Assembly: GCA_050084515.1 (NCBI GenBank)
Contig: CM114271.1
Location: 33,418,001-33,482,000, forward strand
Source of the DNA: Blasia pusilla
Taxonomy: Eukaryota
Reading direction: 5' to 3'
DNA: 64,000 nt
The notes beneath the pieces were generated by a model. The model worked only from the letters and a program-made list of their open reading frames with translations. It did not search any database and was not told the origin of the DNA. Positions 1-49,249 of this stretch are shown here, piece by piece. Within the stretch, counting starts at the first letter, position 1. Every line of letters begins with the position of its first letter. The translations under genes were made by a program, and so were the position numbers.

Positions 1-426
1 ATGCCCAATTGCATCAAAGACCTCCTTAGGGGTGGGCATGGCATACCTATCAGACTTCGTTTGCCGATTGATAGGTCGGTAATCTCCACACATTCGCCTA
101 TTCGTCCAGTTGCCATACATATCCTTCTTGGCGGGCATGACAATCATAGATGCATACTCTCCGTGCGACATCTCCACTAGTCCTTCTCCAACCAAGTCCT
201 GGCTCCTACTCTGAATCAGAGCCCTCTCCATGTCACTATACCTGTAGGATCGTCGAAAGATCGGCGTGTCATTTGATAACTCAATGCGGATCCCTAGACC
301 CTTTAGCGTACCCAAATCATGCAAACTAAATGCAAAATAGGTCCTATAACTCCTAAGGAACAGGTGTATCCGGCACCGCTCTCCTCTTGTCAGCTTAGGG
401 CCCATATCTGGCTCCCAAGTCTCCAT
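1..426 (-). pseudogene. Gypsy reverse transcriptase N-terminus (copy 1)
   Basis: Hand translation: ...IRIELSNDTPIFRRSYRYSDMERALIQ...EYASMIVMPAKKDMYGNWTNRRMCGDYRPINRQTKSDRYAMPTPKEVFDAIGH. This matches the Gypsy RT pattern RxCxDYRxLN...DxYxxP. Confidence 0.9.
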
Positions 427-733
427 CGTGACTACGGTAGGACTATTCGGCGCGGGTGACGGTGGTAGCTATGGTGCAAACCCATCTTGGACAATAGAAC
501 TCTCATTTCCATGTGCAGTATCCGGAACCACACTCGATGTTGTGGCTATGATCTCCTGGCATACTTGCAAAACATCTCTAGAAGTCCAAGGATGTCTCTC
601 CCCTAATGTGTCGATCTCCTCGAATCTTGCCTCCAGCCACTGCCTTAACCGTCCCGGTAGGCATGGGGCTCACCAACGCAACAGTTGTGATATGTCGCAT
701 CCTCAAACGACGTTGCTCAGCTACTCCTCAGCT

Positions 734-1677
734 GAAAATCCATGTCAAGGAGTTCAATTCCATCGCCTGATCCAAGACATGATGTCGTGATGCCTCTCAT
801 AGTGACGGTACTACCGTCACTCCTTCGGGGAATCCCATCGCTCGCTCTCGCTCATCGGCGTTGGGATCCACCAACCTCTGTACATGGTCATCCCAAACCA
901 AGCCAGTTCCGGCCTCCTTGAATGCATAGGAAGCGGGAAAACTCACCAATGCGGGAAAGGCTGTCCGTGGCCTGCCAATCCTGTTGATCACAGTCAACAG
1001 CGATTGATCATCTAGCCTCACTGCTTGGGATCGACGGCCCGGATCCAATATAGAATCCACCAACACTCGGAGGGGTGCTACACTCTCGCATATGCGCTCC
1101 GTAACACCTCGTGTGGTACCAAGTTGGTCCACCAAAGACGCAGGAAATGTGCTCGTGAACCCACACTCGCTGCATCTAACAACACTACCAAGCCGATCCA
1201 TGCGCGCACCTGATGTGCACTCGTCACTACTCGGGACCTTGAATCGCCCAAAATTGGCACATTCTCCAAAATGTATGCTGGAGAACAAGGCTGATGCCCC
1301 TGTAAATGTCGTAAGATCGACATCATCTCCCAAAACACCATGGAACGAGTGTCAGCTAACCCACTACCTTGTCCAGCACTCGATTGGTCTTGACATGGCC
1401 AACTACCAATGACCAAGTATATGGTCCCTACCCGCTCCAAGTCCTACGCCCCCAACAATGAAATGTCCCTCGATAGGGAACTCTGGTAACCCTGAATGGC
1501 GGACGTAGACAACAAGTCGGGAAAACGGAGGCATAACAGCACCACATGGTGAAGTGAAGCGCGCCTCACAACATCATCAATCTCCACATACAGGTTTTGT
1601 TGCACGCGCATTCTAGCATGCACAACAACAGCTAACACAATGCTGATCCCTCCAAAGAGATCCAACACCCGAATACC
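734..1677 (-). pseudogene. C5 cytosine DNA methyltransferase domain (DNMT3/DRM-like motifs, canonical I-X order) embedded in pol
   Basis: Motif I RVLDLFGGI (~1645-1671); II YVEID; IV GSWPCQDQSSAG (catalytic Cys 1393-1395); VI ILENV (Glu 1264-1266); VIII LDAASVGSRAHFLRLWWTNL (~1120-1180); IX ERERAMGFPEGVT (~815-853); X SRHHVLDQAMELNSLTWIF (734-790). In-frame stops at 1444 and 797, and a frameshift near 1080. Confidence 0.92.
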
Positions 1678-2099
1678 CTTCTCTAGGATGCACCACACAA
1701 TCGGGGTGGTGTCCAAAGGGGTCATAGCAGCACTCCTGTCTACTTGGGGTTCCTCTGACGCGTCACACTCTAGTGCAACCGTCTCGCTCTACGTGGTTTG
1801 CACATGCTCCATGGCTAAGGGTCCAAGCTCCTCGGTCGAGCCCCAAAGCGGCATCTCTCCTTCACGGACTAATGCGGCTATCATGATACTCCTCTGCATA
1901 GAAATGTCACGAATGGGAGTATCCTCTGCATGGACATGTCCCTCAATCAAATCACTAGGCCAAGTGATGGCACTGCTAAATGCTGCTTAGGTCGCCATCT
2001 CTCCTAGCCGTTGCTCAATCACTGCACTTGTGAACCGAATGGGTAATGAGCTAAGACGCCCATCACTTGACTAACATCCTGGTCTGTAGGACGCTGACT

Positions 2100-2823
2100 C
2101 CTCCTAGTAATCCAGGGAAAACCCCATCGGGTATAACATTGCTCCATCAACCAAGACGTCGTAGGACTTTGTATTAGTCACTATTGCCTTGGCTCGCACC
2201 ACGGACTCATCTATAAGATGTCCCAGGCGAATCCTCACCACAACCTCCTATCGGGTGATATACAGTGTGGTACTCACTCCACCCAAGGATGTCTGTATCC
2301 GAAATGGACAACGCTTCACATCGGCTCTCGTCAAGCCCAATCCTCTGAATGACGCTTTCCCCAACATCAAGGGTTGCGCTCCTCAATCCAACAAGATTCG
2401 TTGCGGACTAAAAGCTCTACCTCCCCGACTCACCAATTAGAAGATCTCTCCCCGATTATCTAGCAATAAAATACCAAGAGAAACCATGGCATGCTCTATT
2501 GTGGGTCTAGCGGGCATCTCCGCCATCCTAGCAGCCGCAGCTTGCCATAAATCTAACGTGGACGGCCCGAGCATGCGCTCCAAGGGAAAGTCCATCATTT
2601 CCTCTACAATCACCTCTGAATGTGATGCAGGAACTCCAACTTCACGCTCACATAGCGTAGCGGCCAACTGAGAAACCTTGGCGGGCGTACCTCCCAACGT
2701 CCTAACATCGGAAGCAGAAAATAAAGGAGCGCGATACACAAGGGTGGCCGCCCCCAACAACGTGCTTGACACATGCCCCTCTTGAGCATCAGTAATAGGA
2801 GTCATCGCACTCGCTTTTCCCAT
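2100..2823 (-). pseudogene. Retrotransposon aspartic protease plus an upstream conserved segment (copy 1)
   Basis: RILLD*GAQPLMLGK (DSG motif with the Ser codon changed to TGA) and SYDVLVDGAMLYP. Same reading frame as DNMT motifs I-VIII. Confidence 0.8.
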
Positions 2824-3199
2824 CGCCCTCTATGCTTGCACATCAACAACATCACCAACTCTCTAGGAACTTTGATCAGGACCTATCCATAGGGTCCTCA
2901 TTGCCTCAAACAATGTGAAAGATTGAGAAAGCCTAGTATGTTTCCTTGCTTCCCCTCGCTGTGGATCCAACTCTACGGCTGCTCCACGTGTCACAACTAT
3001 GGCGGCCTCCATCTAGGCAACCCCGCACATCCAACCAAGATCCTCCATATCTCAAGCTGCTCCATATAATGTCGATGCCACAGATCCGGCATCGGGTAAT
3101 CTCAATGCCATAGCAACAATCTGCTCCTGTAGCTGATGTATCTGAGCAACCATCCTAGCCTCACGCCCGGCGTCTCCCTTGATGCATCTAGGGAGACGC

Positions 3200-4560
3200 G
3201 TCAAGGGAGTGGTAGGACTCTACCTCCTCCACGGGTAGCTCCACCACCTTGTCGGGCAACTCCAGCTCCTTGTCCCCCAACGGGACCACCTGGTGCACGA
3301 TCTCTAGGCCCACTCGGACCGACTACTTGCTCTAGCGCCCTCTCTGGCCCTCGGTCCGGACGTAACTCAGGATGTAAACTGAAACACCTCGCGCGTGTAT
3401 GACCATACCTCTGACAATAGTCAAACTGATAACCTCTTGGTATAGCACCATCTCCTCCTCCATGATGAGGCACATGTCCATGACACTAACGAGTGCAATC
3501 ACGTTGATGATAGGCTCCACCACATGACCAACAAGTAATCGTAGGCAGCTACTACTGAGCCGCATACGAAGGCGCACGTCTCTATGGCACAGCCTCCTGA
3601 TATCCTCCCTGAGCTCGTGGTGCCACATTCGACCTATCTCGGAGTCCATGTTGTTGCACAGGTGGTGCAGACAATCGTGACTGCTCTCACCCGGAACCCA
3701 TGGTGGCTATGCTCTCCTCCGCTATGTTGCGCTTAATGTTCTCAGTAGTCCTAAAAAAATCTCTCAACATAGGGGAGGTATTCATAAGAAGCATCCCCCC
3801 GCACTCCTGTCCGTAGGGTCTGGTCGAGCATCGCGTACCATGATTGGATAGCCTGAGCCTCTGTCACTACTGAGTGACGTTGATCAACCGGCACAAGCGA
3901 GTATAAGCCTCAGGAAAAGTCTCACCCGCGCGCCTCTAGAAGTCGTGGATGCTTTGCAACTTCTCCGTTCGTATCCCCTAGTAGCTCGCCCTCAACTCAG
4001 CAAAGAACTCAACCACGGGGTTGAACCTGGGACGAATCCGACTAGACGGTGCAATTGCTCTAGTGCGAGTGACCCCTCCTAAAACATCACAAGTAGAAGA
4101 GGAAGTAGCCTCTCTTGACTCCTCCTTCTCATCTGGGAATGGCTCCATCCATGACACATAGTGTGGGTCATAGTAGATTTGCCATGCTTCAATCTCCTTG
4201 GCATATCTGTGGGAGAACTCATGGTAATCGTCCATGGGCGCCCCCTCTAAATATTGGAACATACCGTTCCATGCTGTAAACGGGTTGAACTCTCTAGAGT
4301 TCCTAGCGTGCTGTAAGTCACACCAACTCCTAAACTCCGCAATGAAGTCGTGTAGCTCTATAGTACGTATAGCACCCGAAAACCTACGCAATCCTCTACC
4401 CCGATCGTCCATCTCGTACGCCCAAATGGTAGGACCACTCAATGTGTATGGTGGATCACTAACACACTCCTCTATATGCTCCCCCTTGTCTGAAGACACT
4501 ATAGAAGGAGATCGAGGTGGCCTCTCACGTGGAGATCCTCAAAACCTCGCACCACTCCGG
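3200..4560 (-). pseudogene. Gag with decayed CCHC zinc knuckle (copy 1)
   Basis: ORF 3978-4499 (LRRFSG...LHDFIAEF...QYLEGAPMDDY) and ORF 3201-3473 share a frame. The latter has FDYCQRYGHTRARC followed by a Gly/Arg-rich tract. Confidence 0.7.
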
Positions 4561-5552
4561 CTAAACTCTCCAGAGCTACTCTCAGGTCCACTACCTTGCC
4601 TCTCAAAATCCCGAAAGGACGCAATGATGGCCCTCGTGTCCCTCTCACATGATCACTCTCAATCTCACGAGTAATCCCTCAATCACTCAAACTAAACATG
4701 CGGCACTTAATCTACACTCTCTCACTGAGACGTGTGTTGTGCGACAACAAGCAGCGTGGTGCGGAAAATCAACCGATCTATCATCTCATCGACAAACCAT
4801 CCTCAACTCTGGACATTCCATAGAGGTCTATGTCCCCTAAGCCCATACATCATCAATGCTCCTACCATGAGCACAAAACCCAATATCCCAAATAACTTCC
4901 CAATACACGAAAATCCCTTATACGTGCAGGGTAAGAGACCAGAATGGCTAACCTGACAATAATGTCGATGTGACTCCTCGGCAACTGCAAATCTCGACCC
5001 CAACTCGGTCGTGGAGACAACTCCTCCAATAAGCAAGTTGTACTCCTCTTGTACTGACGCTGCTCAAACCTCCTCGATGTGTGGTGCAGGTCTGCACATC
5101 AAGGAGGTAACGACGACGGCCGCCGCCGTCATGGCAGCTTGTTTAGGGTTTGAACAATTTAACCCTAAGAATTGCCTAGAAATGGGGGTTTTGTAAGATT
5201 GACCATAACTTTTTTCTCGCAACTCTGCGCACCGTCTATTGCACAGCATGCAAAGCTTCACGATCTACGATGGCATCAAAAAATATTTTGAATCGGACAT
5301 TCTAGTAAAAACTGAGGGGGACTCTCGTAAAGCCCAATGTCTCTTCCTCCTACACAAAATTTGACAGCGCTTCCGCGTTGATTTCTCCCAACAAAAATGT
5401 AAAATCTGTGAAAATAAAAATCAGCAACCTACATGGTGCTCTCGAGAGCACCGGAATGGGGCAACCTGCCCCCATACTCAATCCCTATCAAAAATTGGGC
5501 AGCGCTGTCGTATAGTAAAATTAGCCAGTGTGTAAACTCCTTCCTCGTTAAG

Positions 5553-6091
5553 TGTTAGATAGAGTTTTATTAGTATTAAGTAAATTAACTTAGGAAAAGG
5601 AAATTCCCATATTTAAACCTCTTTATGGTGTCTCTTTTATGCGGGCCAAACTTTAGGAAAAGGAGTAATAAATAAAAGATGACTTTATAAAAGTAAAATA
5701 ATGAGGTTGGTGCTTTAATGAAAAGCAAAAGTAGGCTTGGTTGGTGGCTAAGTTAGTTAGGGTAATTTGGAAAATATCAAATGGGTAAAAGAGGATATTT
5801 TAGAAGAGATAAGAGGAAATCTACTTGTGTCCAAATATGATTGGCTAAGCCTTGAGAGGAAGCCATGTGGCACAAGATAAGATTAGTTCTATTTCGTACT
5901 CTTGTGGATCTCTTGTGAGTATATAAAGAGGAGGGACCTTCAAGGGTTCATCACCTTCTATTCCACATCTTGAGTCTCTCGTGTCACTCTTGAGTGCATA
6001 GCTTTAGTATTGCTTGCTCTTCCAATAAGAGTGGATCACCCTCTTAGGAGAGAAACTTTACCATTATCTATTCTTCGAGAGGTTTCTAAAG
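5553..6091 (+). mobile_element. LTR-like segment interrupted by the Gypsy element at 6092; resumes at ~10211-10496
   Basis: Starts TGTTAG and has TATATAAAG near 5920. 5601-5652 and 6043-6093 recur at 10211-10312. The resumed part ends GGTGGAACA (10496), like the LTR-like segment 12581-13362. No TSD found. Confidence 0.45.
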
Positions 6092-7089
6092 TGTCGCGAC
6101 CCTCATGACCAAACCAGTGCCAAGCGGAACAACGGAACATTAGCGGGCTCATGCTAAGATGGTTTGTAAGTTGGAGTAGTCTCGAAGAAGAGACAAGAGA
6201 CGAGACACGAGCGAGGCTTTACGTTTCAGATGTTGTGGTCACAACCGAGAAACCTGGACCAAATGCGGAATAAGACTTGAAAGGAGTCGAGTCTAGAAAG
6301 TGGGTTGCCAAAGGAAGAATCCGGATTTGGAACGCCACTAGCGTTTGAGAGTTTCCGACTATATTTATAACCATAAATTTTAGCGCCAAGATACGTTTGG
6401 ATTAAACAAGAAGGCGTTGGAAGGCTTATGGAAAGCCGGTTCAAACGCACTAAAGATCTCTGCAAATGCATAAGCAGCGACTGAGAAACAACCCGGAAAC
6501 GACTGTAAGTAGAGTCGGGTTGAGGGCCACAATGAAGGGCCCAACCCTCCTTTTCCAAAAAGGGGGGGATTATTGGAGAACCCTAGAAGTACTAGTAAGG
6601 GGGAAGGTCTCCGAGAGTGCTTGGAACTCCAACCCCTCTTTGGGTGACATGGGGCGGCTCAAGGGCATGGAACGGATCGAGAGTTTGGGGTTGGGTTGGA
6701 AAACTTGAACCAAGTCTACGGAGGCGATTTTAGACATCCCTCTTGGATTTCACCCCGCAACTCAATTACTTGGGTCTCAGATTCGAACTCGCACGAGGTC
6801 CGTTGAACAGTTGGGATCGCGCGCAAGTGCCGTTTTAGGTTCCTGGACTAATCAGGAAGTCTGTTCCAAGTCTTGAAGGACTTGCCATGTTTTGGAAACT
6901 AGGAATTAAGGAAGGTTGAGATTGATGAGACGCCGAGTTGAGAACTTGGTGGGTTGGAACGCTGGTTGGCCCGGACCCGACTAACAAGAGTGCGTGTTTG
7001 GGTGCAGATCAGCGATGAGATCGTGTCCTTCTGAACGTACCCTTCCGCAACAGTAAAGATTGACGTTCAAGGAGAGTAGGGGCGCAACA
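6092..7089 (+). repeat. 5' LTR (~1 kb, TG...CA)
   Basis: Begins TGTCGCGACCCTCATG and ends GGGGCGCAACA just before the PBS. Both ends match the reverse-oriented homolog at 24157-25164. Confidence 0.85.
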
Positions 7090-7091
7090 AG

Positions 7092-7103
7092 TGGTATCAG
7101 AGC
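7092..7103 (+). promoter_or_regulatory. Primer-binding site (tRNA-iMet)
   Basis: TGGTATCAGAGC, 2 nt after the LTR's terminal CA. Confidence 0.9.
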
Positions 7104-10100
7104 AAGTCCTTGGTGAGCGAGAACTTGGGGTCGTGGGATCAATCGAACGCTTGGGAAAACTCAAGGTAGCGGCTAGACTCAGACGCTTGAGGAGGGACGC
7201 AAGAAACGAGGAGGGGATCTGAGTGAGTTGGCTTGAAAATGGCGATCGAAGGAGAACAACCCAAGAAGCGCCAAATCAAGCGACGTGAACCAAGAGAGGA
7301 ACCAATGCCGGACCGTGAAGCTACGGAGAAGACGGAGACTCCCGAAGAGTTGAACGCCAGTCGTGAGGACGTTCCAGAGGTGAATCCTTCTGTGGGGCCA
7401 TCGGCCCAAAATCAAGGGAACGGACCGAGTCAAGCCAGACGTTGGACTTGTTGAAGCTGTTGGTGGAGCAGATGTCCCAGCAAAGCAAGCGGATTGTAGA
7501 GTTAGAGGCCACCCAAACTCCGGGTGTGGGTTAAAAGCTCTGCAATACAATCGTGCCGACGCCATTCATTTGGGGTGGGCGCCATGAAAGTGAAGGATTT
7601 CTTACTAAACAGAATCGCATTTGCCGAGCGCGCAAAGCGGGCAGGCGAGCAGGACAAGGTGACGGTAGCCGTTACTTTCCTGAAGGATCATGCACTACAA
7701 TGGTGGACAACTCAACAAGAGGAATATCTGGCCGGCGAGTCACCTCTCAGTTGGGAGGAGTTTAAGGTGTTGATTGGGGATCGATTCACTCTGGAGTACC
7801 AAGGGTTGCGTGACACGGTGGAATGCGTGCGGATGCGACAAAGTGGTTCCTTAAGCGCGTATGTGAGGGAGTTTAGTGCAAAACTGACTTCTGTTCCAAA
7901 GATGGATGAGCACGCAAAGAAGGCTATCTTCATTAGTGGACTCAAGCCGAGCACTGAAAAGGCCCTTTACCGAATGCCGACGCTGCCAGATACATGCGCG
8001 GATCTTTTGAAGCTAGCGGAGAGGATTGGGGACGATGAGGTCCAAAGCCAGAAACCCTTTGAGTCAAAAGGTTTTTTGAAGAAGTCGAAAATAAGGAGAC
8101 GTTCAAAAGAGTCTGGAGTGGGGGCCAGCACGATCCAAGAGAGTCGTCTGCCCGGGCAGCAAACGAGTGGAACTTCATGCGAAGCCGAGAGGAGGACAGC
8201 ACCCGAAGTCATGGAACGGCAAGGTCATATGCTACAACTGTGGCGAACCGGGGCACCTGGCGAAAGTGTGTTCAAAACCGAAGGTTAGTAATGGGAGTAT
8301 GATTGTGTTTTCTGCTAAGCATCTGTTGGCGGCTGATCTCGAGACATCCCTCCAGGTCACCAAGAGGACGCACAATTTGGTGTACCTAAGATCCAAGATT
8401 GCTGATTGCGATGTGTTGTTGCTCGTGGATACAGGTGCTTCGCACTCCTTCCTAAGCCCGAGAATCGTGAAGGAACTGGGGTTGTCTACCTCTAAGGCGG
8501 ATGAGCCCATTTGAGTAGGATTTTCAGGAGGCAAGTCTCATCGGACTTCTGAATTGGTCTTGGGTTTGACTATAGGATGCGGGGTATTCGAGTTGAAGGA
8601 GAATTTCACTGTGTGCGAAATGGATGGCATTGACGGAGTCTTGGGTAATACCTTCCTAGATGCGTATGAGGTGGAGTTAAGATGTAGACCCTTGAGGTTG
8701 AGCGTCTTGCTAAAAGGAAAACGGTTACAGGTGCGGTTGGTCCGTGAGGTTCCGGCGAAAAAGGAGTTAGTGAACTCGATTACAAGGAGGAGCATGACCG
8801 AGTTGGAGGATGGATTTCTCTGCTTGATGAGACAAGTGGAGGAGACTACAAGCAGAATCACGCAGAGATCGAGACACGCTTCAAGGAAATCCCAGAACCA
8901 CTCCAGGAAGTGGTCAAGGAGTTTGAGGATGTCTTGACAAATGAGCTTCCGACTGAATTGCCGCCACATAGAGCCGTCGATCATAAGATGGAGATCATAC
9001 CTGGTTCCCAACCGCCTTCAAAAGCACCATATAGGTTGAATCAAGAGGAACTTCTTGAGTTGAAAAGGCAGTTAAGTGAGCTCTTGGAAAAGGGTTACAT
9101 TAGGACTAGCAAGTCACCTTATGGAGCACCAGTTCTTTTTGTAAAGAAGAAGGATGGAAAGATGAGGCTGTATGTTGATTACCGTGCGCTAAATAAAGTG
9201 ACGGTTCGGAACAATTATCCTCTTCCGAGGATAGATGATCTCTTTGATAGGCTGGCAGGCGCGAGATATTTCAGTAGGATTGACTTGAAGTCAGGATATT
9301 ACCAGATCCGGATTGCCGAGGCTGATGTGGAGAAGATTGCGTGTAGGACAAGATACGGTTCCTTTGAGTTTGTAGTGATGCCTTTCGGTCTATGTAACGC
9401 GCCTCCGACGTTCACCACATTGATGAACTCCATTTTTCACAAGGAAATGGATGAGTATGTTATCATCTATATTGATGACATACTTATCTATTCGAAGTCA
9501 CTAGAGGAGCACGTTCGACATGTGAGACCGGTCAGCAAATCAGCTGTATGCGAATGTAGAGAAGAGCAAATTTGGTTTGAGCAAGATCAAATTCTTGGGT
9601 CACGTGGTCAGTGCAGATGGCATCAGTCCAGACATGGAGAAGGTGAAAGCGATTGTCGAGTGGGAACCCCCATCCACTGTAAAGGGGATGAGAAGGTTCA
9701 TAGGTGCGGTGCAGTTCTATCGCACTTATGTGAAAAACTTTTCGGGAATTGTGAGACCTCTCACGGATTGGACAGCAAAGTTTGCCAACACGACTTGGAC
9801 CCAGAAAGTTAATGAGGCATTCAGCCGAGTGAAGCAGATTCTATCGTAGGAACCAGTATTGAAGCTGCCGGAGTTTGACAAACCATTCGAAGTGCATACC
9901 GATGCTAGTGATTTCGCGGTTGCAAGAATGTTGGTGCAAGAAGGGAGACCTGTAGCATAAGAGAGCAAGAAGCTTAGCGATACTGAAAGGAGATGGCCCA
10001 CTCATGAGAAAGAGTTGTTTGCGGTGGTACATTGCTTGAGGAAGTGGCCGCATGATCTAGGGCTCCACAGGACTCGAGTATTCACCGATAATATATCACT

Positions 10101-11219
10101 CAAGTATTTTGAGACCCAGGATCGAGTGACACCGAAACAACTACGATGGCATGATACCTTGGCGCTGATGGATAGTGAGTTGATTCACAAGGCTTTTCGG
10201 AAGCCGTTCGAAATTCCCATGTTTAAACCTCTTTATGGTGCCTCTTTTATGCGGGCCCAACTTGGGAGAGTAACTTGACCATGGTCTATTCTTCAAGAGG
10301 TTTCTAGAGTGTGGTGTGTGTGTGGAGATGAGAGGTTTGTCACCTTAGAGGAGTTTAGTCGTACTAAAATAGTGAATGTTTTGGCTTGTTACTTTCCTAA
10401 TGAGAGTGGATTACCCCTCTTGGGAGAATAACTCCGCCAAAACCCATTCTTGAGGAGAGTAGAGAATGTCTATCAAGCATGGATAGGGGTGGAACATGAT
10501 TTGTGCCCGACTTTCCTTTCCTCAATCCATACCATGTCAAGATACTCTTTGTAGATAGGCGCTCGTTCACTCGCTATTTAGTTTGTCACTTTGGGGAGGC
10601 GTTCATAAACCAGGTCATTCAATCTCCAACTCCGGTGATCCTTCCTGTCGTCACATATGGAAGGACATGGGATTGTACTTTGTATGTCCTTATATAGCAA
10701 TCCATGGACGTCAATAGGCCTGCTCAAGTAGGATTTAACACTAGTTATGCTATCTTCTTCGTGTACAAGCGTAAAGTAGTTTATAGGGATTTTATAGTTA
10801 GGAATTTTGGGGTCCGATGGTACGAAGAAGTGATCGCCTTGGCACTTCCATTTGTGATACTTGTCGTGAGAGAATGGAGAGTATACATTATAATTTTGTA
10901 TTGAAAAAGGAGAACTTATTAGAGGGTTCACCTTGTATCGACCACGTCTGCCGCAGCTAGAAGGCATGCCCTTACTCGAAGAAAAGCTCTCGACACGACA
11001 GCGCTTCCGCGCGCCACTCTTTCACACGAAAAATTGACAAAGGAAACATCACAAATAAGCAGTTCTTGCTCCGGTGAGCACTCCCATGAATCGATGAACA
11101 AGTGATACAATCCCCAACCTGCAAAACCAGTGAGTGATCAGCGAGCTCCCCCATGAAGCTCTCTCACTCACTCATTCTCTCTTTGTAAAATAAGATCCAA
11201 TCTCTTTCACAACACCATA

Positions 11220-11700
11220 GTTCTCATATGTGTGCGCTCTCACATGTCTCTCTAAATATCAACCCAAACCCACTCTCCTAATGAGAGGCTTGGATTACAC
11301 ACACAAGGGAAGCAAGACCATAGCTCCGCCGCCTCATGCCAAGAGGTTCAGCAAAGAGAGAATGAGCTCTCAAGCTCTCTCTCCTTGAGGTATACCCCTC
11401 CCCTCTCCCAAGCTCTCTCCATGGTAACCTATGCTCCCAATCACCTCCTTGGCTCTTGACCTGATGTAGGAGATAAAGGGCCATTTACCAAAGATATAAA
11501 GTTGCTTATATACTCAAAATGGTACTTATCTAAAATAGTAAGTTTCTCAATATGGCTCCAAATGAGCCAAAATGAAGGGTAAACCTGCTCTCTCAAGTTT
11601 CTCGGGGCCTCAGTAGGTCATCCTTGACCTATTGAGCCTGTCATCCACTACTCATGAAGGCGCTCTACTAGATCGTACCAATCTATCCTAAAAGACGTAA
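11220..11700 (+). repeat. Interspersed repeat; reverse-oriented copies at ~17950-19240 (with nested solo LTRs) and ~21505-21950
   Basis: For example, CCTCATGCCAAGAGGTTCA at ~11332 matches TGAACCTCTTGGCATGAGG at ~18718 and ~21848, and CAAACCCACTCTCC matches GGAGAGTGGGTTTG. Confidence 0.8.
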
Positions 11701-11709
11701 GAGGCTGGT

Positions 11710-12550
11710 TGCGGGCTAGGATGCGGGCCTTGAAGCCCGCCTCAAGGCCAGGTCGCAGGCTACCAAGCTCGCATGCGGGCCAGGTACAGGCCATGAAGCC
11801 CACGCACGGGCTAGGTCGCGGGCCGTGGAGCTCATATGCGGGCTAGGGTGCAGGCCCTCAAGCCCACATCTGGGCTGATTACACGCCGCATGCAGGCTAT
11901 AACACGAGCTCGCGCGCGGGCCTAGAAGCTTGCATGCGGGCTATAGTGCGGGCCCTGAAGTCCGGCTTGCTTTCAAGCCTGGGAGCTTGCCTGCAAGCTA
12001 GGGCAAGGGCATGCGTGCGAGCCGTCAAGCCCGCGCACGGGCTTCTTGTGGGTCTTGGAGCCCGGCTGCATGCTAGGTACTAGGCCGTCGAGACCGCGTG
12101 CGGGTTGATTGCGGACGTGGGAGCCTAGTGCGGACTTGCATTCGAGCCTCCAAGCCGGCCCGCAGGCTAGTTACGGGCTCTAGAGCCCACATGCGGGCTA
12201 TATTGTGGGCCGCCAAGCCCTCTGACGGGGTAGGCTGCGGGCATGGAAGCTCGCATACGGGCTACGGCACGGGCTAGTTGCGAGCCCTAGAGCTCGCGTA
12301 GAGCCTGCGCACGGACTCTTAGGCGCGTAGTGCGGGCTCTACGCGGGCCCTAAAGCCTGCGTGCGGGCTAGGGCACGAGCTTGCCTGCGGGCCCAAGATC
12401 CCGTGGATGGCCCGTAGTGTAGGCTTATAGCCCGCGCAAAGCTTGCATACGGGATACTTGCGGGCCTTGGAGCCCGCCTACGGGCTAGGGCGCAAGGCCG
12501 TGCATGGGCTCTTGGCGGGCCGTGCGGGCCAGGGGTTATGGGCGGGCCCT
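11710..12550. repeat. GC-rich degenerate minisatellite, ~31-32 bp unit
   Basis: Consensus approximately GCGGGCTAGGTCGCGGGCCTTGAAGCCCGCAT, repeated with divergence. Confidence 0.8.
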
Positions 12551-13369: not shown

Positions 13370-15778
13370 GATGGCATACTCTCAATGCAACATCAGGAGT
13401 AGTCTTGGCTCCTACTCTGAATCAGAGCCCTCTCCATACCATTGTTCCTATAGGGTCATCAAAAGAGTGGCGTGTTGCTAGACAACTCAATGCGGATCCC
13501 AACACCCTTCAACGTACCCAAATCATGCATCCTAAATGAAAAATAGCTCCTATGACTCCTAAGGAACTGATGTATATGGCATTGATCTTTGCCCGTTAAT
13601 TTAGGGCCCATATTGCTCCCAAGTCTCCATCGTGACTACTATAAGACTCTCAGGCACGGCTATCTGTGATTACTATGGCGCAACCTCATCTCAGACCACA
13701 GAACTCGACTACTTCCTTGCAGTCAACTCCAAACACTCATGTCCTCCATATGTAGTACTGTGATAATCCTTGTCAAACACTTAAGGTCCATCAACTTATC
13801 CATGATATGATATCGTCATGTCTTTGATAGTGACGGCACTACCGTCACTCCTATGGAAAATCCCGTCGCCTGCTCTCGTTCATTGGCCTTTAGCTCCACC
13901 AACCACTATGCCTCCTCATCCCAAACCAAGCTTGGATTGGCCTCCTTGTATGCATAGGAAGCGGGAAAACTCACAAAAGTGGGAAAGGCTGCCTGGGGCA
14001 TGCCAATCCTTTTGACCTCACAGTCAATGGCGGTCGATCATGATGCCTCATTCCATGTGATCAACAAGGTGATCAATACAACCGGGTTCCATAATATATA
14101 GAATCCATCAAAAAATGGGAGGGGCACTTCACTCTCACATACGTCCTCCGCAACACCTCATGTGGCACCAAGTTGGTCCACCATAGATGCGGGCAAGGTT
14201 GCACGAGATGTTCACGGACATGTCGCCCAAGCACCTACGGCCCGTATCTAAGCTCGCCCATGGAGACCGCCGAGCCTATAACGGGCATCTGGGTTGGCCG
14301 AGCCCATATCGGTTTTATGGCCCACGGCCAAGACCGTGCAAGGCCCACACATGGCGCGGCTCCTATAGGCCAAGAGCCTATCCAATGGGGACCTAGCCCG
14401 CTTTGTGTAGGCCTCGCCACGGGCCACAAAAGTGGTGCGGGCTCAGCGAGCCCAAGTGCTCGCTACCGGCTTGACGGGCTTCAAGGGCAGGCTTGGGATG
14501 CGCAATGCGGGTACCTTGGATTGCACGAACATGTCCATCTTAGGGATAGGCATAAGCCCGCAGATATGGACACGTCCGCAAATACAGAATCTGTTAGTAT
14601 GCAATCCTGGACGCGGGCGATGTGCTCGTGAATCTACACTTCTTGCATCCAAAAATTCTAATGGGTCGATTAAAGCACGCACATGCTTGGGACTGGTCAC
14701 CACTCGTAAACTCGAATCACCCAAATTCGGCATATTCTCTAGGATGTACACTGGAATCTCATTATCCGTTTGATTCATGGCCATGGGTGGACTGATTGAA
14801 AGACGGCAAGGAGAGATGGTGATGTTAGCAACATTTGGTAGCGCCATCACTTGGCTTGATGATTTGATTGAGGGTCATATCCATTTAGGGGAGACACTTG
14901 CGCTTGACACTTCTACGCAGAGGATTGTAAGAGAAGCCGCATCATTCCATAGAGGAGAGGTGCCGCTGTGGGGCTCGAGTGAGAAGCCTCGAGGCTCGGC
15001 GGATGAGCACGTGCAGATGGCGTGGAGGAAGATATTTGCACAAGAATGTGATGGCTCAGAATAACCCGAGGTAGCTGGGAGTGCTACGATGACACCCTTG
15101 GACACCACACCCATTATGTGGTGCACTCCATCGGGTACAACACTACTCCTCTGACCAAGATATTATAGGACTCAAAATCGATCACTATCGCCTTGGCTCA
15201 CACAATAGACTCATTTGATGGATGTCTGGGTCGAATCCTCACCACGACCTCATATCCGGTAATGAACTATGTCATATTTGCTCCACCCAAGGATGTCTAT
15301 ATCTTCAATGGGCAATGATTCACATTGGCCCTCGTAGGCCCAACCTTGTAAATGGTGACTTCCCCAACATCAAGGATTGCGCTCTTGAATCCAAACAAGA
15401 CATGTTGCGGGAAAATCACTCTACCTCCTAGACTCATCAAATGGAAAACATCTTTCCGGTTATCTAGCAACACGACACCTAGAGAAACTATGGCACACTT
15501 TATCACGGGTCTAGCAGGCATCTCCGCCATCCTAGCAGCCGCAACTTGCCATGAATTTTGGGTAGACAGCCCAAGCAAAGGCTCCAAGGCCAAGTCCACC
15601 ACCTCTAAACGTGAGGCACTAACACCAACTCGACACTCACATAGCCAAGCGACCAGTTGGAAAACCTTAACGTGCATACCTCCCAACATCATAATATTGG
15701 AAGGGGAAAACCATGGGGTGCGGTACAATGTAGTATGTGGCACCCCCAACAATGTAATCACCACATGCTCCTTGTGAA
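13370..15778 (-). mobile_element. DNMT-Gypsy copy 2, rearranged (RT start, DNMT motifs VI-X, inverted linker, protease)
   Basis: GGCTCCTACTCTGAATCAGAGCCCTCTCCA at ~13407 is identical to 201-230. Also ANEREQATGFSIGVT (motif IX), VYILENMP...LDARSVDSRAHRPR (motifs VI and VIII), and ORF 15297-15764, which is homologous to 2437-2823. Confidence 0.88.
14194..14609. mobile_element. hAT-type MITE inserted in DNMT motif VIII
   Basis: Ends are CAAGGTTGCA and TGCAATCCTG. 8-bp TSD GATGCGGG (14186-14193) / GACGCGGG (14610-14617). The insert is absent from the homologous site in copy 1 (~1140). Confidence 0.85.
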
Positions 15779-15789
15779 TATTTGACGTA

Positions 15790-17780
15790 TGTTGTTGTCA
15801 ACTTTTTCTTCATTGACATCCCCTAGATTGCATCAGCGGTGGTTCTTACCATTTGGGTTAAAGAACGTTCCGACAAAGTTTCAAAGGGATATGGATAGGA
15901 TTTTGATAGGTTTGGATTTTGTTGGGTGTTATATTGATGACATTGTAGTCTTTAGCACCACGGTTGGGAAGCATGAGCGACATCTTGAGGAGGTGTTTTG
16001 ATGATTGCAGTTACATGGGCTGAAGCTATATTTAGGTAAGTCTAGTTCTTCTACGACCAAATTGAGTTCTTGGGTGACACAATATGCCTAGGTGGCCTTG
16101 GTATTCAGTAGATAAAGGAAGAGGCTATCTCACGCATTCCATGCCCTACAGATGTGAGTCGAGTTCTTGAATTCATGGGATTGGAGAATTTTTACCGACG
16201 GGCTTTAGTTTGATTGTAAAGCCGCTAACCTTAGTGACTAGATGGATCACGAGTGGCAATAGGGAGATAAGTACGTGAGAGCATTTTTTTTGCTCGAGGA
16301 TATGTTGACGTTTGCGCCCATATTGAGGAGACTTATCTCCTCAATATGGACGTCCTTTCCAATTGCATACTAATTCGAGAATGTTAATGTTGGGACTTGG
16401 AGCGCTGCTCACACAACATGATGATGAGGGTAGAAAAATTTTGGTGGCTTACAATAGTCGCTCAAACAATAGTGCAGAGGCAAAGTATAGCTCGTATGAG
16501 GATAAATGTTTGGCGCAGTGTGGGTTGTCGCATATTTTTCAAGTATTATTTATTTGGCAATCCCTTTATGTACCATCATTACTCATCATCATACACTTAA
16601 GTAGTTAATGGAGTTTGACAAGCTTACAATAAAGCTTGTGAGGTGGGCTCTATTGTTGCCAAAGTATGATTTCCATGTGATACATCGATATCTACCTAAG
16701 ATGCTGAACCAAGATGTAGATGGGTTGAGCCTTAACCCATGCCTAAGTTAGCGAGATACGACTGGAGCTCGGTGGCATGGAGAGAGAGATAAGGAGTTGG
16801 TGCCTGGATGGCAAGCGTCAGCCTATTTAGGCTTGTTGGCTATGGAGAGCGAGAGTGGTAAGACTTCTATTGCGAGGTCTAATGCAGAGTCCTTAGATCT
16901 AGAGGCCAGCGAGGAGGCGATAGGTGGCCGAGATATTCACTAGGATGGAGAATTCTTTGAGTACTTGTGTACAAGCAACGTTGCAAGCACAATGGATGCT
17001 AGAGAACGGGATCGGATCTAATAGCGAGCTTGACGGTTCCGGTGGGAGTGGACATATATGTTGCAAGTTTGGGAGTATATATGGAAGAGTATGTGTGGTT
17101 CCACATCCTTTGTAGAGAGCATGATTGGTGCAATATTCGGACAAGGAGTTGTGTTACTTTGGAGTGAAGCGGACATATAGCTTGCTCTAGATCTAGATAT
17201 AATATTGGTGGCGAGATATGCAGACTCATGTTCAAAAATTTATTGCCAAGTGCATGGTGTGTAATGGGATCTGGGTGTCGTTCAGTACTTTGACTCCACA
17301 GTTGCATCCATTTCCGATCATGCATTTAGGTTAAAGATTGAATTTGGATTTTGCATGACCTTTACCTTTAATGTAGTGTCATAGTCGTTATGTGTTGGTG
17401 ATGGTCGAGCACTTCTCGAAGTGGATAGAGTTGGTTGCATTTCCTGAAAAAGCAAGTGAGGGAGTAGCATATGCCTTCCTAGATGGAATGTTGAGTCATT
17501 ATGGCGCACGATTAGCTCTTGACAGACAAGGGTACAGAGTTTTACGGGGAGTTTGAGGTCTTGTATGATCAGGCGTTGATTGACCACCGCACCACTTCGC
17601 AAGATCATATTGACGCAGATAGACTAGCCGAGAGGCCGAGTTGTGCAGATGGTGAAGAGAGTTTTATGCAAGTATGGCTTGCAAAGAGATCACCTTGGAG
17701 ATTGGGACCTCTAGTTGCCATGGTTAGCGATGCAATACAGAATCAGCAGATAACTATCCTTCAAGTCTTTCTCACCGTAC
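15790..17780 (+). pseudogene. Gypsy RT C-terminus, RNaseH and integrase (degenerate)
   Basis: LPFGLKNVP...CYIDDIVVFS; FQLHTN...LGALLTQ...VAYNSRSNNSAEAKYSSYE; FGVKRTYSLL...KCMVC; MVEHFSKWIELVAFP; TDKGTEF...HRTTS...ADRLAER. Confidence 0.85.
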
Positions 17781-18215
17781 TGGGTCTTCTAGGGGCCCTG
17801 GCGGGCCACGCAATGCGTGCAGGATTCTTCAACCTAGGTGTACGTGGTGGGCTCCAAGACGGGCTCGGGTGCATGCTGGCCACGCGTGCCCGGGCCTACA
17901 CAAACATAGACAGATCCGCGGACACGGACTTTAGTCGTGTGCAACCTTGGTCTTTAGGATAGATCAATGAGATCTAGTAGAGCACCTTCAAGGATATTGG
18001 AGGACATGTTTAAGAGGTCTAGGATGACCTTCTGAGGCCACGGGTAACCTAAGAGAGCAGGTTTTCCCTTCATTTCGGCTCATTTAGAGCCATATAGAGA
18101 ATCTTACTATTTCAGGAAAATTACCATTTTAAGTATAGTTGACTTTATACCTTCGTAAGTGGCCCTTGACCTCCTAAAGCACGTCGACAGCCAAGAAGGT
18201 AACATGTGAGCATAG

Positions 18216-23546: not shown

Positions 23547-25164
23547 TTTCGTCCTGCTATTCTCCATGAACGTAAATCTTAAATGTTGCGAAATCATGAG
23601 TTCAATAGGACATGCTCTCAATGTTGATATGCATCCATACACACACTCATGTTAGTCGGGTATGGGTCAATCAGGGTTCTAACTCTTAGAGTTCTCCACT
23701 AGGCCTCTCATCAAGCTCAACCTTCCTAGTTTCTTGCTTTACAACACAAGCAAATGGCGTTTGCATGCCCGACCGGCCCAACTATCCCATGGATCTCTAA
23801 TGAGTCCCTAACCTAGGACATAGAGGACCGGGTCACTTGAGCTTGGAGCTAAAGGCCGCGTGGAAAGATTCACGTCTGAGACATCCTCATGTCTAAGGTT
23901 GAGCGCTTCAAGAGTCGCTATCTCCTCCTCTGGCTCGCGGTCAATCATTGGTTTGTCTCTCGGGTCTTTAGCTTGACTCACGACTTCCTTGGTAATTCAC
24001 CCTTGGTCGCCATTCTCGAGTCCTCGCCTTCTCAGATCTCCTCCTTGTCTCTTGCGTTCCTCCTCGAGCATCGAGATCTCCCCTCGAGCATCAAGGTTTC
24101 CTTCTCCTCAAAAATCCAGATCTTCACGCTCACCAATTATTAGCTCTGATACCACGTGTCGTATGCCTACTCTCCTTGGACATAAATCTGTAGTGTTGCA
24201 GAAGCATGCGTTCAGTTAGGACACGGTCTCAATGCTAATCTGCGCCCAAATACGCACTCATGCTAGTAAGGTCTGGGTCAATCAAGGCTCTAACTCTCCG
24301 AGTTCTCAACTTGGCTTCTCATCAAGCTCAACCTTCCTAGTTTCTTGCTTTACAACGTAGGCAAGTCTCTCTCAAGACTTGGGACAAACTTTCCGGTCAG
24401 TAAGGAACCTCAAACGGAGTTTGCATGCTTGGTGGTCCCAACTTTCCAATAAACCTTCAATGAGTCCCTAATCGAGACTCACCAAAATGAGTCACGGGTT
24501 ATAATCCAATTGTGGCTTTCGAAATCTACACCCTTGGATCAGGTTTCGGTTTCGATTCCCAACGCCAAACTCCCATTCCATCCCGTGTCTTTGAGCCGCC
24601 CTTTAGCGCCCAAAGTTGGGTCTAGGTCCCAAGAATCCTTGGAGACACTCCCCCTTAGTAGTACTTCTGGGAACCACCACACTCCCCCTAACTTTGGGAA
24701 AAGACAATCAGGCCCTTCATTTTGGCCCTCAACCCAACTCCCTCTACTGTCATTTTTTACAAATATCTCATCCTCTACTTATGCGTTTGCTAAGATCTTT
24801 GGTGCATTGGAACTGGCTTTGCATAAGCTTTCCAACACCACCTTACTTGTCCCAAACACATCTTGTAACTTAATGTTAAGGTCCAAAATATATTTAAACC
24901 CCAAACGCTAGTCGCTTTCCAAATTTGGTTCTCACCACTTTGGCAACCAACCTTCCTAGACTCAACTCATTTCAAGTTTTGGTTAACGTTTGGTCAAGGT
25001 TTCTTGGTCGCGACCATAAACACATGAAATGCGCAAACTCTATTCGCGTATTTCATCTCTTGGATTCTTCCAAGAGACCTCTCCAAAGCGCAACCATCCT
25101 AGCGTGAGTCCGCTAACATTATGATGGTCTTCTTGGCACTCGTTTGATTATGAGGGTCGTGACA
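23547..25164 (-). mobile_element. Internally deleted relative of the 6092 Gypsy: LTR (24157-25164), PBS (24143-24154), short internal piece, partial second LTR (~23547-23820)
   Basis: GCTCTGATACCA is the reverse complement of the iMet PBS. LTR ends match 6092 and 7089. 23640-23755 duplicates 24250-24365. Confidence 0.8.
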
Positions 25165-47859: not shown

Positions 47860-48965
47860 TCTATAGGTTCCTTTGTTTTTTATCATAGAGTTGGTGACAA
47901 TGGGCGTTACACCAGCGAAAGTGTTCCGGTTGGCCGCCACGTTGTGTGAGCGTGGAGAGATGATTGTCTCTTGTACTCAAGTGGTTATTGTTGAGGAGGT
48001 GGTGGATTTGACCTTGGAGCATGTGCTCAGGACGTTCCCCACTCAATCATGGCATGCTACAGCGGCCAAATTAATAGATATGCCAACTAGGCCACCGATA
48101 GAGCAAGCCATGATCACATCAGGTGTAGTATTGTTAGATAACCGAGCTGGAGTATTTTGCTTGGTTAGTCCCATAGGTATGGTGTACCACTTCCAGTGCA
48201 TCCTACTTGATTTGGGAGCGTAGCCCTTGATGTTGGAAAGGCGGTGTGTTTGACATTGGGTTTACGAAAAGGTGACACTGAGCGTTGTCCCTTTCAGATA
48301 CAGACCTCTATTGGGGGCCTATCACGCACGCAATACATGACTCGACAAGAGTTGGTGGTTAGACTCCAATCAGAGCATGAGTCGAATAGTGCGATGGTGC
48401 ACACTCAGGCGATAACGACACCTGAAGATTCGTATAATGTGTTGAAAGGGAGTAGGGTGTTGTACCCTCTTGGTTTCATCCTAGATTTTTGACAAGAGAG
48501 GATTTCTTATCGGCCAGGGTGGTAATCAAGTAATGGACGGACCAGCCATTTACCGATGGACTTTGCAGGGTGTAGTGGTGGTCGACCAGATGACAATATG
48601 GTGCTCACCTTGGCAGCATTGACAAGTGGTGTTAGCTGACCAGGAGAGTTATAGGAGAGGAGCATCCATACGGAGGACATTCCCGTAGTGGATAGTCCCA
48701 CGGAGAGACATGTCATGGTGGTTGTCTCTTCCGATGGTGCGGAGACTTCTTTATCATTGTTGGGTACTAGCCTTGAGTTGTAGAGGAGTGCAGACGAACT
48801 CGTGACGCATGTATGAATCCGTACCTGTGTCTTGGAACAGACAGAGTCAGGTGACGGTCATGCTTTTGGACCAGAGATATCATATTTTTGGTTATCACTC
48901 ATTTGTGTGGCAGTATTTGGAGCAGTGTATGAGAGTGTTAGATCTCTTCAAAGGGATCAACACGG
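47860..48965 (+). mobile_element. DNMT-Gypsy copy 3 fragment (pre-PR segment, protease, linker, DNMT motif I)
   Basis: TPAKVFRLAATLCER...CILLDLGA*PLML; SYNVLKG...YPLGFILDF; VWQYLEQCMRVLDLFKGIN (motif I at ~48932-48958). Collinear with 2750 down to 1645. Confidence 0.85.
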
Positions 48966-49249
48966 CCGATATATGCAATGTTGCGGGGATGACCGCACCG
49001 ACGGTGCTAGATGTGAATAGAGTAGTAGATCATGTCAGGTAGATATGATGTCTGCTATCTATAGTTAGGGGGGCCCAATTTCCAGCTAGGGGGGCTGGTT
49101 GAAGGGTCTCGACATATATGCGTGAGCCTTTTTGTTTATGAGTGGATCGACCCGTATGTTGGGAAGATCGGTATTTTGTGGTGTGTAGATATGAACAGAC
49201 ATGTGGATTGTGTAGCGATGTGTATGGGTACGACATCCTGCACAATATA

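Follow-up and report, generated by a model that had tools for sequence, protein, structure and literature searches.

A DNMT3-type cytosine methyltransferase carried by a family of Ty3/Gypsy-type retrotransposons in bryophytes

A decayed methyltransferase-bearing element in Blasia pusilla

We analyzed a stretch of 64,000 nucleotides from Blasia pusilla (the window; GenBank assembly GCA_050084515.1, contig CM114271.1, positions 33,418,001 to 33,482,000 of the forward strand), in which the minus strand of positions 1 to ~5506 is the 5' part of a dead Ty3/Gypsy-type element carrying a DNMT3-type C5 cytosine methyltransferase. On that strand the domains follow each other in the order gag, CCHC knuckles, protease (PR), an unpermuted C5-methyltransferase (DNMT) and the start of the reverse transcriptase (RT), inside which the element leaves the window. 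The aligned segments hold 23 in-frame stops (9, 12, 2 and 0, from gag to RT) and at least three frame changes, so the locus is dead, and the window copy itself has no function.

The anatomy was established by tblastn of an intact Marchantia polymorpha protein, Mp_4g09160 (labeled P0002 among the relatives collected in this study; 1278 amino acids), which is colinear with the locus over residues 9-1236. Residues 9-354 (gag) align to 4397-3363 at 40% identity, residues 395-1078 (knuckle region, spacer, protease and methyltransferase motifs I-VIII) to 3162-1081 in one frame -2 alignment of 711 columns with 12 in-frame stops, and residues 1086-1236 (the remaining methyltransferase and a tail) to 1060-608 in frame -1. 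The RT start of MARPO_0084s0073 (P0006) aligns by tblastn to 423-49 at 69% identity. An original prediction, made from the letters of the window without database searches, had placed the methyltransferase downstream of gag, knuckles and protease and upstream of a Gypsy RT, with protease and motifs I-VIII in one frame broken by point stops and with no introns evident. All of this agrees with the colinear alignment to intronless relatives and with the RT homology in 1-468; motifs IX and X are in the other frame, between two frame changes.

The gag ATG is at 4410-4412. The first CCHC knuckle keeps an intact CX2CX4HX4C pattern (3495-3533), the second is decayed and lacks its first Cys (3384-3416), and zf-CCHC matches in Pfam are found in the relatives P0017 and P0025. 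At the protease active site (2374-2394) the window copy reads LLD*GAQ, with a stop in place of the Ser/Thr, where relatives read LLDSGAQ; a second protease motif, YDVLVDG, is at 2143-2163. The Asp_protease_2 family matches relatives P0001 (E 0.0012, 20 bits) and P0017 (E 0.00028, 22 bits), both below the cut-off of 24.3 bits. The linker between protease and methyltransferase has no Pfam match and is partly helical in an AlphaFold2 model of the Calypogeia relative P0004. Three in-frame stops (codons ending at 1446, 799 and 730) and a frame change near 1075 interrupt the methyltransferase, and another frame change lies near 600-610 in the tail that follows it. The piece of RT in 1-468 matches no Pfam family and stops short of most of RVT_1, so it was identified as RT through homologues: positions 1-156 align to residues 517-568 of P0183, entering the RVT_1 match of that protein at 534-692.

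The original prediction had ended the element at 4680, which is too low. In a whole-genome shotgun (WGS) run of the host species, loose read ends gather at position 5506 (351 and 776 reads on its two sides), and this repeat boundary suggests the outer end of the 5' long terminal repeat (LTR), with the element and its 5' LTR reaching ~5506. The features of this copy and of two further pieces of the family in the window are listed in Table 1.

Table 1. Features of the methyltransferase-bearing family in the window (ORF, open reading frame)
Feature	Position	Strand	Basis
5' untranslated region and presumed 5' LTR	4413..5506	-	read-pile boundary at 5506
Gag with two CCHC knuckles, nine in-frame stops	3363..4412	-	tblastn with P0002; motif coordinates
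Conserved spacer and aspartic protease	2044..3162	-	within the 711-column P0002 alignment
Conserved protease-DNMT linker	1705..2043	-	kept in relatives and in copy 2 (inverted there, 74% nucleotide identity)
DNMT3-type C5 cytosine methyltransferase, motifs I-X	701..1704	-	PF00145; motif coordinates
ORF1 C-terminal tail, HPW motif at 574-594	472..700	-	homologous tails in Marchantia, Sphagnum and Calypogeia
Conserved TAG ending the gag-PR-DNMT frame, candidate leaky stop	469..471	-	contiguous ORFs, copy 2, RNA reads
RT, N-terminal part	1..468	-	67-69% identity to the RT start of P0006, P0174 and P0205
Copy 2, rearranged and decayed	13402..17795	both	blastn, 73-79% identity to copy 1
Third fragment, protease to DNMT start, then broken	47870..48967	+	tblastn with P0002 (528-836) and P0180 (up to 768)

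The methyltransferase and the frame that it closes

All seven motifs that the original prediction had named as a full C5-methyltransferase set in canonical order were found on the minus strand between 740 and 1671: I (RVLDLFGG, 1648-1671), II (VEID, 1576-1587), IV (PCQ, 1390-1398), VI (ENV, 1258-1266), VIII (SRAHFLRLWWTNL, 1120-1158), IX (ERAMGFP, 827-847) and X (LDQAMELNSLTW, 740-775). The proposed check against PF00145 gave a significant match in 1078-1443 (minus strand; E 1.6e-9, 38.1 bits against a cut-off of 22), and this was the sole piece above the Pfam cut-off among the ten pieces of 1-4538 that were searched.

Tests of similarity and fold used the intact relative P0004 in place of the broken window copy. 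As to the kind of METHYLTRANSFERASE, the comparison of P0004 with PDB sequences returned 48 distinct sequences at E up to 0.01, of which the first 29 are DNMT3A, DNMT3B or DNMT3C (best E 8.4e-11). P0004 and DNMT3A align colinearly, with query residues 315-500 on chain positions 9-174 and 589-628 on 238-277, that is, motifs I-VIII followed by IX-X, as expected from the earlier statement that the domain, unlike plant DRM, is not circularly permuted. Below DNMT3 rank 4onj and 4onq (both named 'DNA methyltransferase', which we take to be tobacco DRM), DRM2 (2e-4), M.HaeIII (4e-4), M.HhaI and DNMT2 (~0.009). An AlphaFold2 model of P0004, built with 40 relatives, has a predicted local distance difference test score above 90 across nearly all of residues 305-640. 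All matches listed by a Foldseek search of this model against the PDB are DNMT3A, DNMT3B or DNMT3C (best 6f57_D, E 6e-18, TM-score 0.84 by target), and a structure search of the ESM Atlas returned DNMT3A first (TM-score 0.75). The predicted likeness to DNMT3 is thus borne out, and the domain is DNMT3-type in the sense of its nearest solved relatives by sequence and modeled fold, not of phylogeny.

Conservation was assessed in an alignment of 40 relatives from the same architectural side of the family as the window copy (PR-DNMT, see below), with a mean column identity of 13%. The Leu and Gly of motif I and the Glu of motif VI are invariant, and the Phe of motif I, the Cys-Gln of motif IV, the Arg-x-Arg of motif VIII and the Glu-Arg-Glu..Gly of motif IX are conserved in at least 90% of the sequences. 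Since residues of the catalytic motifs are kept across 40 divergent relatives, a conserved catalytic function can be argued. Between copies 1 and 2, the ratio of nonsynonymous to synonymous changes (Ka/Ks) is 0.19 for motifs VI-VIII (64 codons), 0.24 for RT (69 codons) and 0.57 for the protease.

The original prediction had the methyltransferase built into pol between protease and RT. The order was right, and the continuous pol was not, as a conserved stop ends the frame after the methyltransferase. In the bryophyte clade the tail that follows the domain is 76-82 residues long and alike throughout, HPW motif included (Marchantia P0002, P0171, P0176, P0178 and P0016, Sphagnum jensenii P0227, Calypogeia P0004, and P0172, P0173, P0279 and P0289), and in ORFs like those of Klebsormidium nitens it is 13 residues. 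Just 17 of 130 proteins with a complete methyltransferase end (outside the type with the domain between RNase H and integrase) continue into RT, and several of these are models of eukaryotic genes in which a predicted intron presumably spans the gap. In the window copy the minus-strand ORFs 469-669 and 1-468 are contiguous, so that tail, TAG and RT are in one frame, and copy 2 retains the TAG there as well. Two loose-end consensus sequences from RNA reads diverging at position 456, X17 (28 reads, agreement 1) and X19 (18 reads, agreement 0.99), keep the TAG and continue with CAA CCA. A stop followed by CARYYA is the consensus context for readthrough in plants (PMC5397192), from which the window copy differs by one letter. 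A programmed frameshift between methyltransferase and RT was considered and rejected because tail, stop and RT share one frame. By its sequence, the methyltransferase is the C-terminal part of a gag-PR-DNMT frame separated from RT by a conserved stop, and the likely design is an ORF1 of gag-PR-DNMT, a leaky UAG, and then RT, RNase H (RH) and integrase (INT).

One in-frame stop of the methyltransferase, at 728-730 (minus strand), is private to this copy, because another letter stands there in more than 90% of the genomic reads (189 of 202 and 225 of 237) and in every RNA read listed.

Relatives, abundance and neighbors of the element

A word-indexed protein search with the broken window domain found seven proteins among 3697 candidates, including ones from Marchantia and Calypogeia fissa, and five of the seven have PF00145. 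With the intact Calypogeia domain, 77 proteins were found among 7996 candidates, and those labeled with an organism comprise 19 from Marchantia polymorpha, two from Calypogeia, three from Sphagnum (S. troendelagicum, S. fallax and S. jensenii) and one from Klebsormidium nitens (KFL_000540020; 31% identity in the methyltransferase, E 7e-33). A search among longer proteins gave 44 matches, including three from Marchantia and one from Scenedesmus, which brings the Marchantia models with the domain at the same place to 22 across both searches. The survey of other bryophytes that had been suggested therefore yields relatives in protein models of Marchantia, Calypogeia and Sphagnum. No vascular plant appeared in these protein searches, a weak negative since they required annotated models and shared words.

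Several relatives retain more of the polyprotein than the window copy. Marchantia MARPO_0091s0058 and Mp_2g26090 read from the methyltransferase into RVT_1 and RNase H, and P0017 (2188 amino acids) holds CCHC, protease, methyltransferase, RVT_1, RNase H (RT_RNaseH), Integrase_H2C2 and rve in a single frame, which on its sequence is the Gypsy order with a methyltransferase inserted after the protease. With the order PR-RT-RH-INT pieced together from copy 1, copy 2 and P0017, the family is, judged by this order and its CCHC gag, a Ty3/Gypsy-type LTR retrotransposon.

A HMMER scan with P0004 of 1.84 billion representative proteins found 4631 proteins at E up to 0.001, 281 of them at E up to 1e-30. 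The best 150 of the 4631, with their cluster mates, were typed by phmmer with segments of P0017 and fall into two architectures: PR-DNMT-RT-RH-INT, to which the window copy belongs, and RT-RH-DNMT-INT, often with a PHD finger and including a 'pol' protein of Scenedesmus sp. PABB004. The second group is large (P0021-P0169 and P0253-P0276, among them the Scenedesmus protein, P0050), and we did not find it described under that architecture.

The trees are unrooted and contain element-borne methyltransferase domains only, without host DNMTs. In a FastTree analysis of 158 domains, a branch with support 97 separates 63 rows (31 of the PR-DNMT or DNMT-RT type, 32 untyped and none of the other type) from 95 (71 RH-DNMT or DNMT-INT and 24 untyped). 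In an IQ-TREE analysis of 52 chosen rows, in which the window copy was read through with X at the breaks, a 99/98 branch splits the 15 RH-DNMT-INT proteins from all 24 PR-DNMT or DNMT-RT proteins. The window copy belongs to an 11-row clade (100/99) together with proteins of Marchantia, Calypogeia and Sphagnum and further records. On this side of the split the K. nitens protein is part of another clade, of five rows (100/100), beside a CCHC-PR-DNMT protein. The DNMT tree called for in the original prediction was thus made with the K. nitens protein and gave a well supported bryophyte clade, but it is confined to element-borne domains. On this unrooted tree, the RT-RH-DNMT-INT domains form what appears to be the sister group of the bryophyte family's domain.

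Within the bryophyte clade Sphagnum and Marchantia group together (98/86), leaving Calypogeia and the window copy outside. Such a grouping conflicts with the species tree of mosses and liverworts, and old sublineages of the element or transfer between bryophytes could explain it.

Abundance and transcription were estimated from reads placed on 1-6500 at a likeness of at least 88%, using one WGS run (about one read in 100) and three RNA runs of the host species. From the WGS run, 41,832 reads were placed, of which 64 are at least 99% alike, 1590 are 95-99% alike, 20,500 are 90-95% alike and 19,678 are below 90%. Depth per read orientation ranges from 143 to 795 across 1-5425 and is lowest at 1086-1302 and 435-651. 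Taking the 64 near-identical reads to represent this locus would put the family at several hundred copy equivalents, a rough figure in that the last 1 kb of the placement region consists of other repeats.

The RNA of each of the three runs is strand-biased: plus-strand first mates outnumber minus-strand ones by ~4 to 100 times in most bins across 1-5425 (81 vs 7, 66 vs 1 and 69 vs 9 in the first bin). The bias reverses in the neighboring repeat at 5426-5859, so the libraries are stranded, and by the usual library convention the RNA is the sense strand of the element. A 53-base segment of the 5' untranslated region (4663->4717, minus strand) is skipped by 6, 3 and 7 RNA reads in the three runs and by no DNA read in the 1% sample. 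An intron was rejected here, since the ends are not GT..AG on the element strand, and the skip is read as a length variant of transcribed copies.

Besides copy 1, the window contains the rearranged copy 2, in which the stretch from protease to RT start (13402-15785, minus strand) lacks motifs I-IV and holds a nested inversion at 14787-15125. The end of RT, RNase H and integrase follow on the plus strand at 15828-17795, with the 5' part inverted relative to them; the integrase has 63-78% identity by tblastn to Marchantia, Sphagnum and P0017 proteins. The end of the methyltransferase and the start of RT are arranged as in copy 1.

The surroundings are rich in other repeats. An unrelated plus-strand Gypsy element occupies 6092-12000, with a presumed LTR from near 6092, an exact tRNAiMet primer binding site (PBS) at 7092-7103, gag from 7506, and protease and RT (an RVT-like ORF) at 8748-9812; a related LTR lies within 23557-25165 (minus strand) with the same PBS at 24143-24154. 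Beside the outer end of copy 1, a repeat at 5506-5960 (plus strand) shows strong transcription from the opposite strand in all three runs (RNA depth 91-200), with first mates on the minus strand and many molecules starting at 5762. An intronless ORF of 481 codons at 26012-27457 (plus strand) codes for UDP-glucose 6-dehydrogenase. All three Pfam domains of the enzyme are present (E down to 3e-65), the Atlas clusters closest to it belong to Streptophyta, and the ORF is likely a host gene within a nest of repeats. The ORF at 29657-30514 (minus strand) has a weak match to the hAT dimerization domain (E 7.5e-4, below the cut-off) and is probably a remnant of a hAT transposase.

Proposed function and comparison with known systems

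We consider it probable that these elements form a bryophyte Gypsy family whose ORF1 encodes gag, protease and methyltransferase, which reaches RT, RNase H and integrase by readthrough, and whose methyltransferase is kept by selection as a competent enzyme that most likely methylates the cDNA or new insertions of the element. In intact members each Gag-PR molecule would come with a methyltransferase, which would outnumber RT and integrase, and the RT, RNase H and DDE integrase would most likely be made by stop-codon readthrough of the UAG. The protease would free the methyltransferase, or the enzyme may stay joined to processed products. As do DNMT3 enzymes, it would methylate cytosines de novo, and its most likely target would be the element's own cDNA or a new insertion; for DNMT-bearing retrotransposons, their own reverse-transcribed DNA is the favored target (PMC5890265).

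Several observations weigh against parts of this reading. No LTR partner was found by blastn of 1-7500 against the window or by a repeat search of 4400-5600, and no tRNAiMet PBS was found in the element, the motif matching within the window only the neighboring plus-strand Gypsy at 7092 and its relative at 24143. A polypurine tract and target-site duplication were also not found, the 3' half of the element lying outside the window, and integrase was seen only in the rearranged copy 2 and in relatives, with no single intact copy in this genome. The sense-strand reading of the RNA hangs on the usual library convention, and nearly all RNA reads are less than 95% alike to the locus; because only one read per run is at least 99% alike, the transcripts come from other copies. 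The readthrough signal was read in a consensus of read ends, 30 letters long, rather than in an assembled copy, and splicing across the stop may occur instead, as in the gene models that bridge it. Ka/Ks between the two copies is mixed and not decisive, being 1.19 from the target recognition domain (TRD) to motif X (83 codons) and 1.06 in the linker (99 codons), both copies being decayed and the samples small. Finally, KnitGypsy-Dnmt3 of K. nitens, in the sole published assay of a Gypsy-borne DNMT3, gave no methylation in yeast, a result that its authors call inconclusive (PMC5890265).

The main alternative is that the enzyme works in trans, methylating host chromatin or other elements, perhaps making or finding methylated heterochromatin as a safe niche for insertion, or adding to de novo methylation by the host. 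The conserved stop puts the methyltransferase at the level of Gag, not of RT and integrase, and because of this dosage trans action is a serious alternative; the abundance and transcription of the family would suit it, as would the sister architecture, which joins the methyltransferase with integrase and a PHD finger, a chromatin reader. We nevertheless judge it unlikely: neither a nuclear localization signal nor a chromatin-reader domain was found beside the methyltransferase in the PR-DNMT-RT type, and K. nitens, which has the nearest known relatives, has an ordinary plant-like methylome (de Mendoza 2018, PMC5890265). Less likely still is that the domain is conserved for something other than DNA methylation, such as methylating RNA, a role raised for a LINE-borne DNMT (LINE, long interspersed nuclear element; de Mendoza 2018, PMC5890265), or binding and diverting host methylation factors without catalysis, as DNMT3L does. 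The negative yeast assay and the Ka/Ks near 1 from TRD to motif X would fit such a role, but the catalytic Cys, the Glu of ENV and the residues of motifs I (SAM-binding), VIII and IX are kept in at least 90% of the 40 relatives, which disfavors a DNMT3L-like role as it does not need catalytic residues. The nearest proteins by sequence and fold are moreover the DNA enzymes DNMT3A, DNMT3B and DNMT3C, with the tRNA enzyme DNMT2 near the bottom of the list.

The origin of the domain raises separate alternatives. That a host DNMT3 fragment landed here by chance, or was captured by this copy only, has next to no likelihood. All that speaks for it is the decay of this copy and its setting among nested repeats. 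Against it, copy 2, many Marchantia, Calypogeia and Sphagnum models and dozens of further contigs carry the domain in an identical place and frame, and among the read joints listed, 15 of 25, no well supported one skips it. The host-gene fragment that the original prediction had named as a refuting case was accordingly rejected, since the domain is family-wide at the same place. Common descent with the K. nitens elements may be read from the shared side of the 99/98 split and the same domain order, on a tree without a root. Against this, the bryophyte and Klebsormidium elements could have captured DNMT3 independently, with the PR-DNMT order reached by convergence or by transfer between hosts. 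Consistent with separate captures are the 31% identity to KFL_000540020, the separate and strongly supported subclades, the grouping of Sphagnum with Marchantia against the species tree, and the unrooted tree without host DNMT3, in which a host sequence could fall between the two. We hold independent capture to be improbable, as the 24 PR-DNMT or DNMT-RT proteins, K. nitens relatives included, stay together against the 15 RH-DNMT-INT proteins, the 158-row tree splits likewise, and the K. nitens-like ORF1 also ends soon after the methyltransferase. A bolder and, in our view, doubtful proposal is that of one old streptophyte Gypsy-DNMT3 lineage, with a single DNMT3 capture before Klebsormidium and land plants split, still active in bryophytes, Marchantia included, and with an enzyme that, made at the level of Gag, methylates both in trans and in cis; if it were true, part of the de novo cytosine methylation of bryophytes would be written by a transposon-encoded enzyme.

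The use that a retrotransposon has for a methyltransferase has been an open question since 2018, and Symbiodinium and Klebsormidium are hard to manipulate. Marchantia polymorpha has apparently intact ORFs of the family, along with transformation, methylation mutants and methylomes, which makes the question directly testable. The position of the methyltransferase in the frame of Gag and protease, ahead of a conserved leaky-stop context, predicts its abundance relative to RT. Beyond bryophytes, the relatives suggest that DNMT-bearing Gypsy elements of green algae and environmental data form a large group with two branches. Some gene models of the family are automatically named DNA (cytosine-5)-methyltransferase in public databases and can inflate counts of host DNMTs.

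This kind of element has been known since 2018 (KnitGypsy-Dnmt3), and what is new is a host range in land plants that includes a genetic model, with detail on expression. The precedents that the original prediction had named, in Symbiodinium and a charophyte, are borne out: DNMT-bearing retrotransposons were reported as DIRS and LINE elements in Symbiodinium and as Gypsy-Dnmt3 in K. nitens, the latter as an acquisition in the K. nitens lineage (PMC5890265). A 2026 preprint mentions 'streptophytes (Gypsy-DNMT3)', citing de Mendoza 2018 (10.64898/2026.05.21.726589). The prediction knew of no description in embryophytes, and we found none of DNMT-bearing Gypsy elements in bryophytes or other land plants in the full-text literature, whose coverage leaves out supplementary species lists; term searches found no mention in papers on Marchantia methylation, Physcomitrium DNMT3 and liverwort genomes.

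KnitGypsy-Dnmt3 is the closest published system, being Gypsy-type with an intronless, unpermuted DNMT3-like domain in its polyprotein (PMC5890265). KFL_000540020, which is not confirmed as one of the KnitGypsy-Dnmt3 elements of that paper, is on the same side of the architecture split as the bryophyte family, and its close relatives have CCHC-PR-DNMT with an ORF ending just past the methyltransferase. The differences are the charophyte host, the divergence of the domain (as measured on KFL_000540020) and its separate subclade, together with fewer copies in K. nitens than the hundreds of read-depth equivalents here and a reported DIRS-like arrangement of repeats (PMC5890265). SymbioDIRS-Dnmt3 and SymbioLINE-Dnmt are likewise retrotransposon-borne and conserve catalytic residues, and the one functional precedent is SymbioDIRS-Dnmt3, whose expression in yeast led to de novo CG methylation; the two are, however, tyrosine-recombinase DIRS elements and LINEs, not LTR/Gypsy elements with a DDE integrase, and an independent acquisition was inferred for them (PMC5890265).

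Among cellular enzymes, DNMT3A, DNMT3B and DNMT3C are the best matches in sequence (E 8e-11) and fold (TM-score 0.79-0.84 by target), with colinear motifs I-X and similar motifs VIII, IX and X. In contrast to them, the element domain lacks PWWP and ADD, has ~23% identity, has a longer stretch between motifs VIII and IX (~88 vs 64 residues) and lies inside a gag-PR polyprotein. Plant DRM is DNMT3-related and the second-best PDB group (E 4e-7 to 2e-4), but its matches are confined to query residues 310-443 and fall at the C-terminal end of the DRM chains, which is what a permuted domain would give; the element domain is unpermuted. The group of the Scenedesmus sp. PABB004 'pol' (KAF8056149.1) also has a C5-methyltransferase in an LTR polyprotein, but there the enzyme follows RNase H and precedes integrase, and a PHD finger often stands at the C-terminus. 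The EpiLTRs of the 2026 preprint (10.64898/2026.05.21.726589) are described there as LTR elements with a C5-methyltransferase in the polyprotein, unlike ours in that the enzyme is near DNMT4, is appended to the 3' end of pol in Cymbomonas, and is accompanied by an adenine methyltransferase and a chromodomain. Finally, the UAG with CAA CCA after it, as read in transcribed copies, and an RT that continues its frame resemble leaky-stop expression in plants (PMC5397192); in contrast to the stop-CARYYA readthrough of plant viruses and genes, protease and methyltransferase here sit upstream of the stop together with gag.

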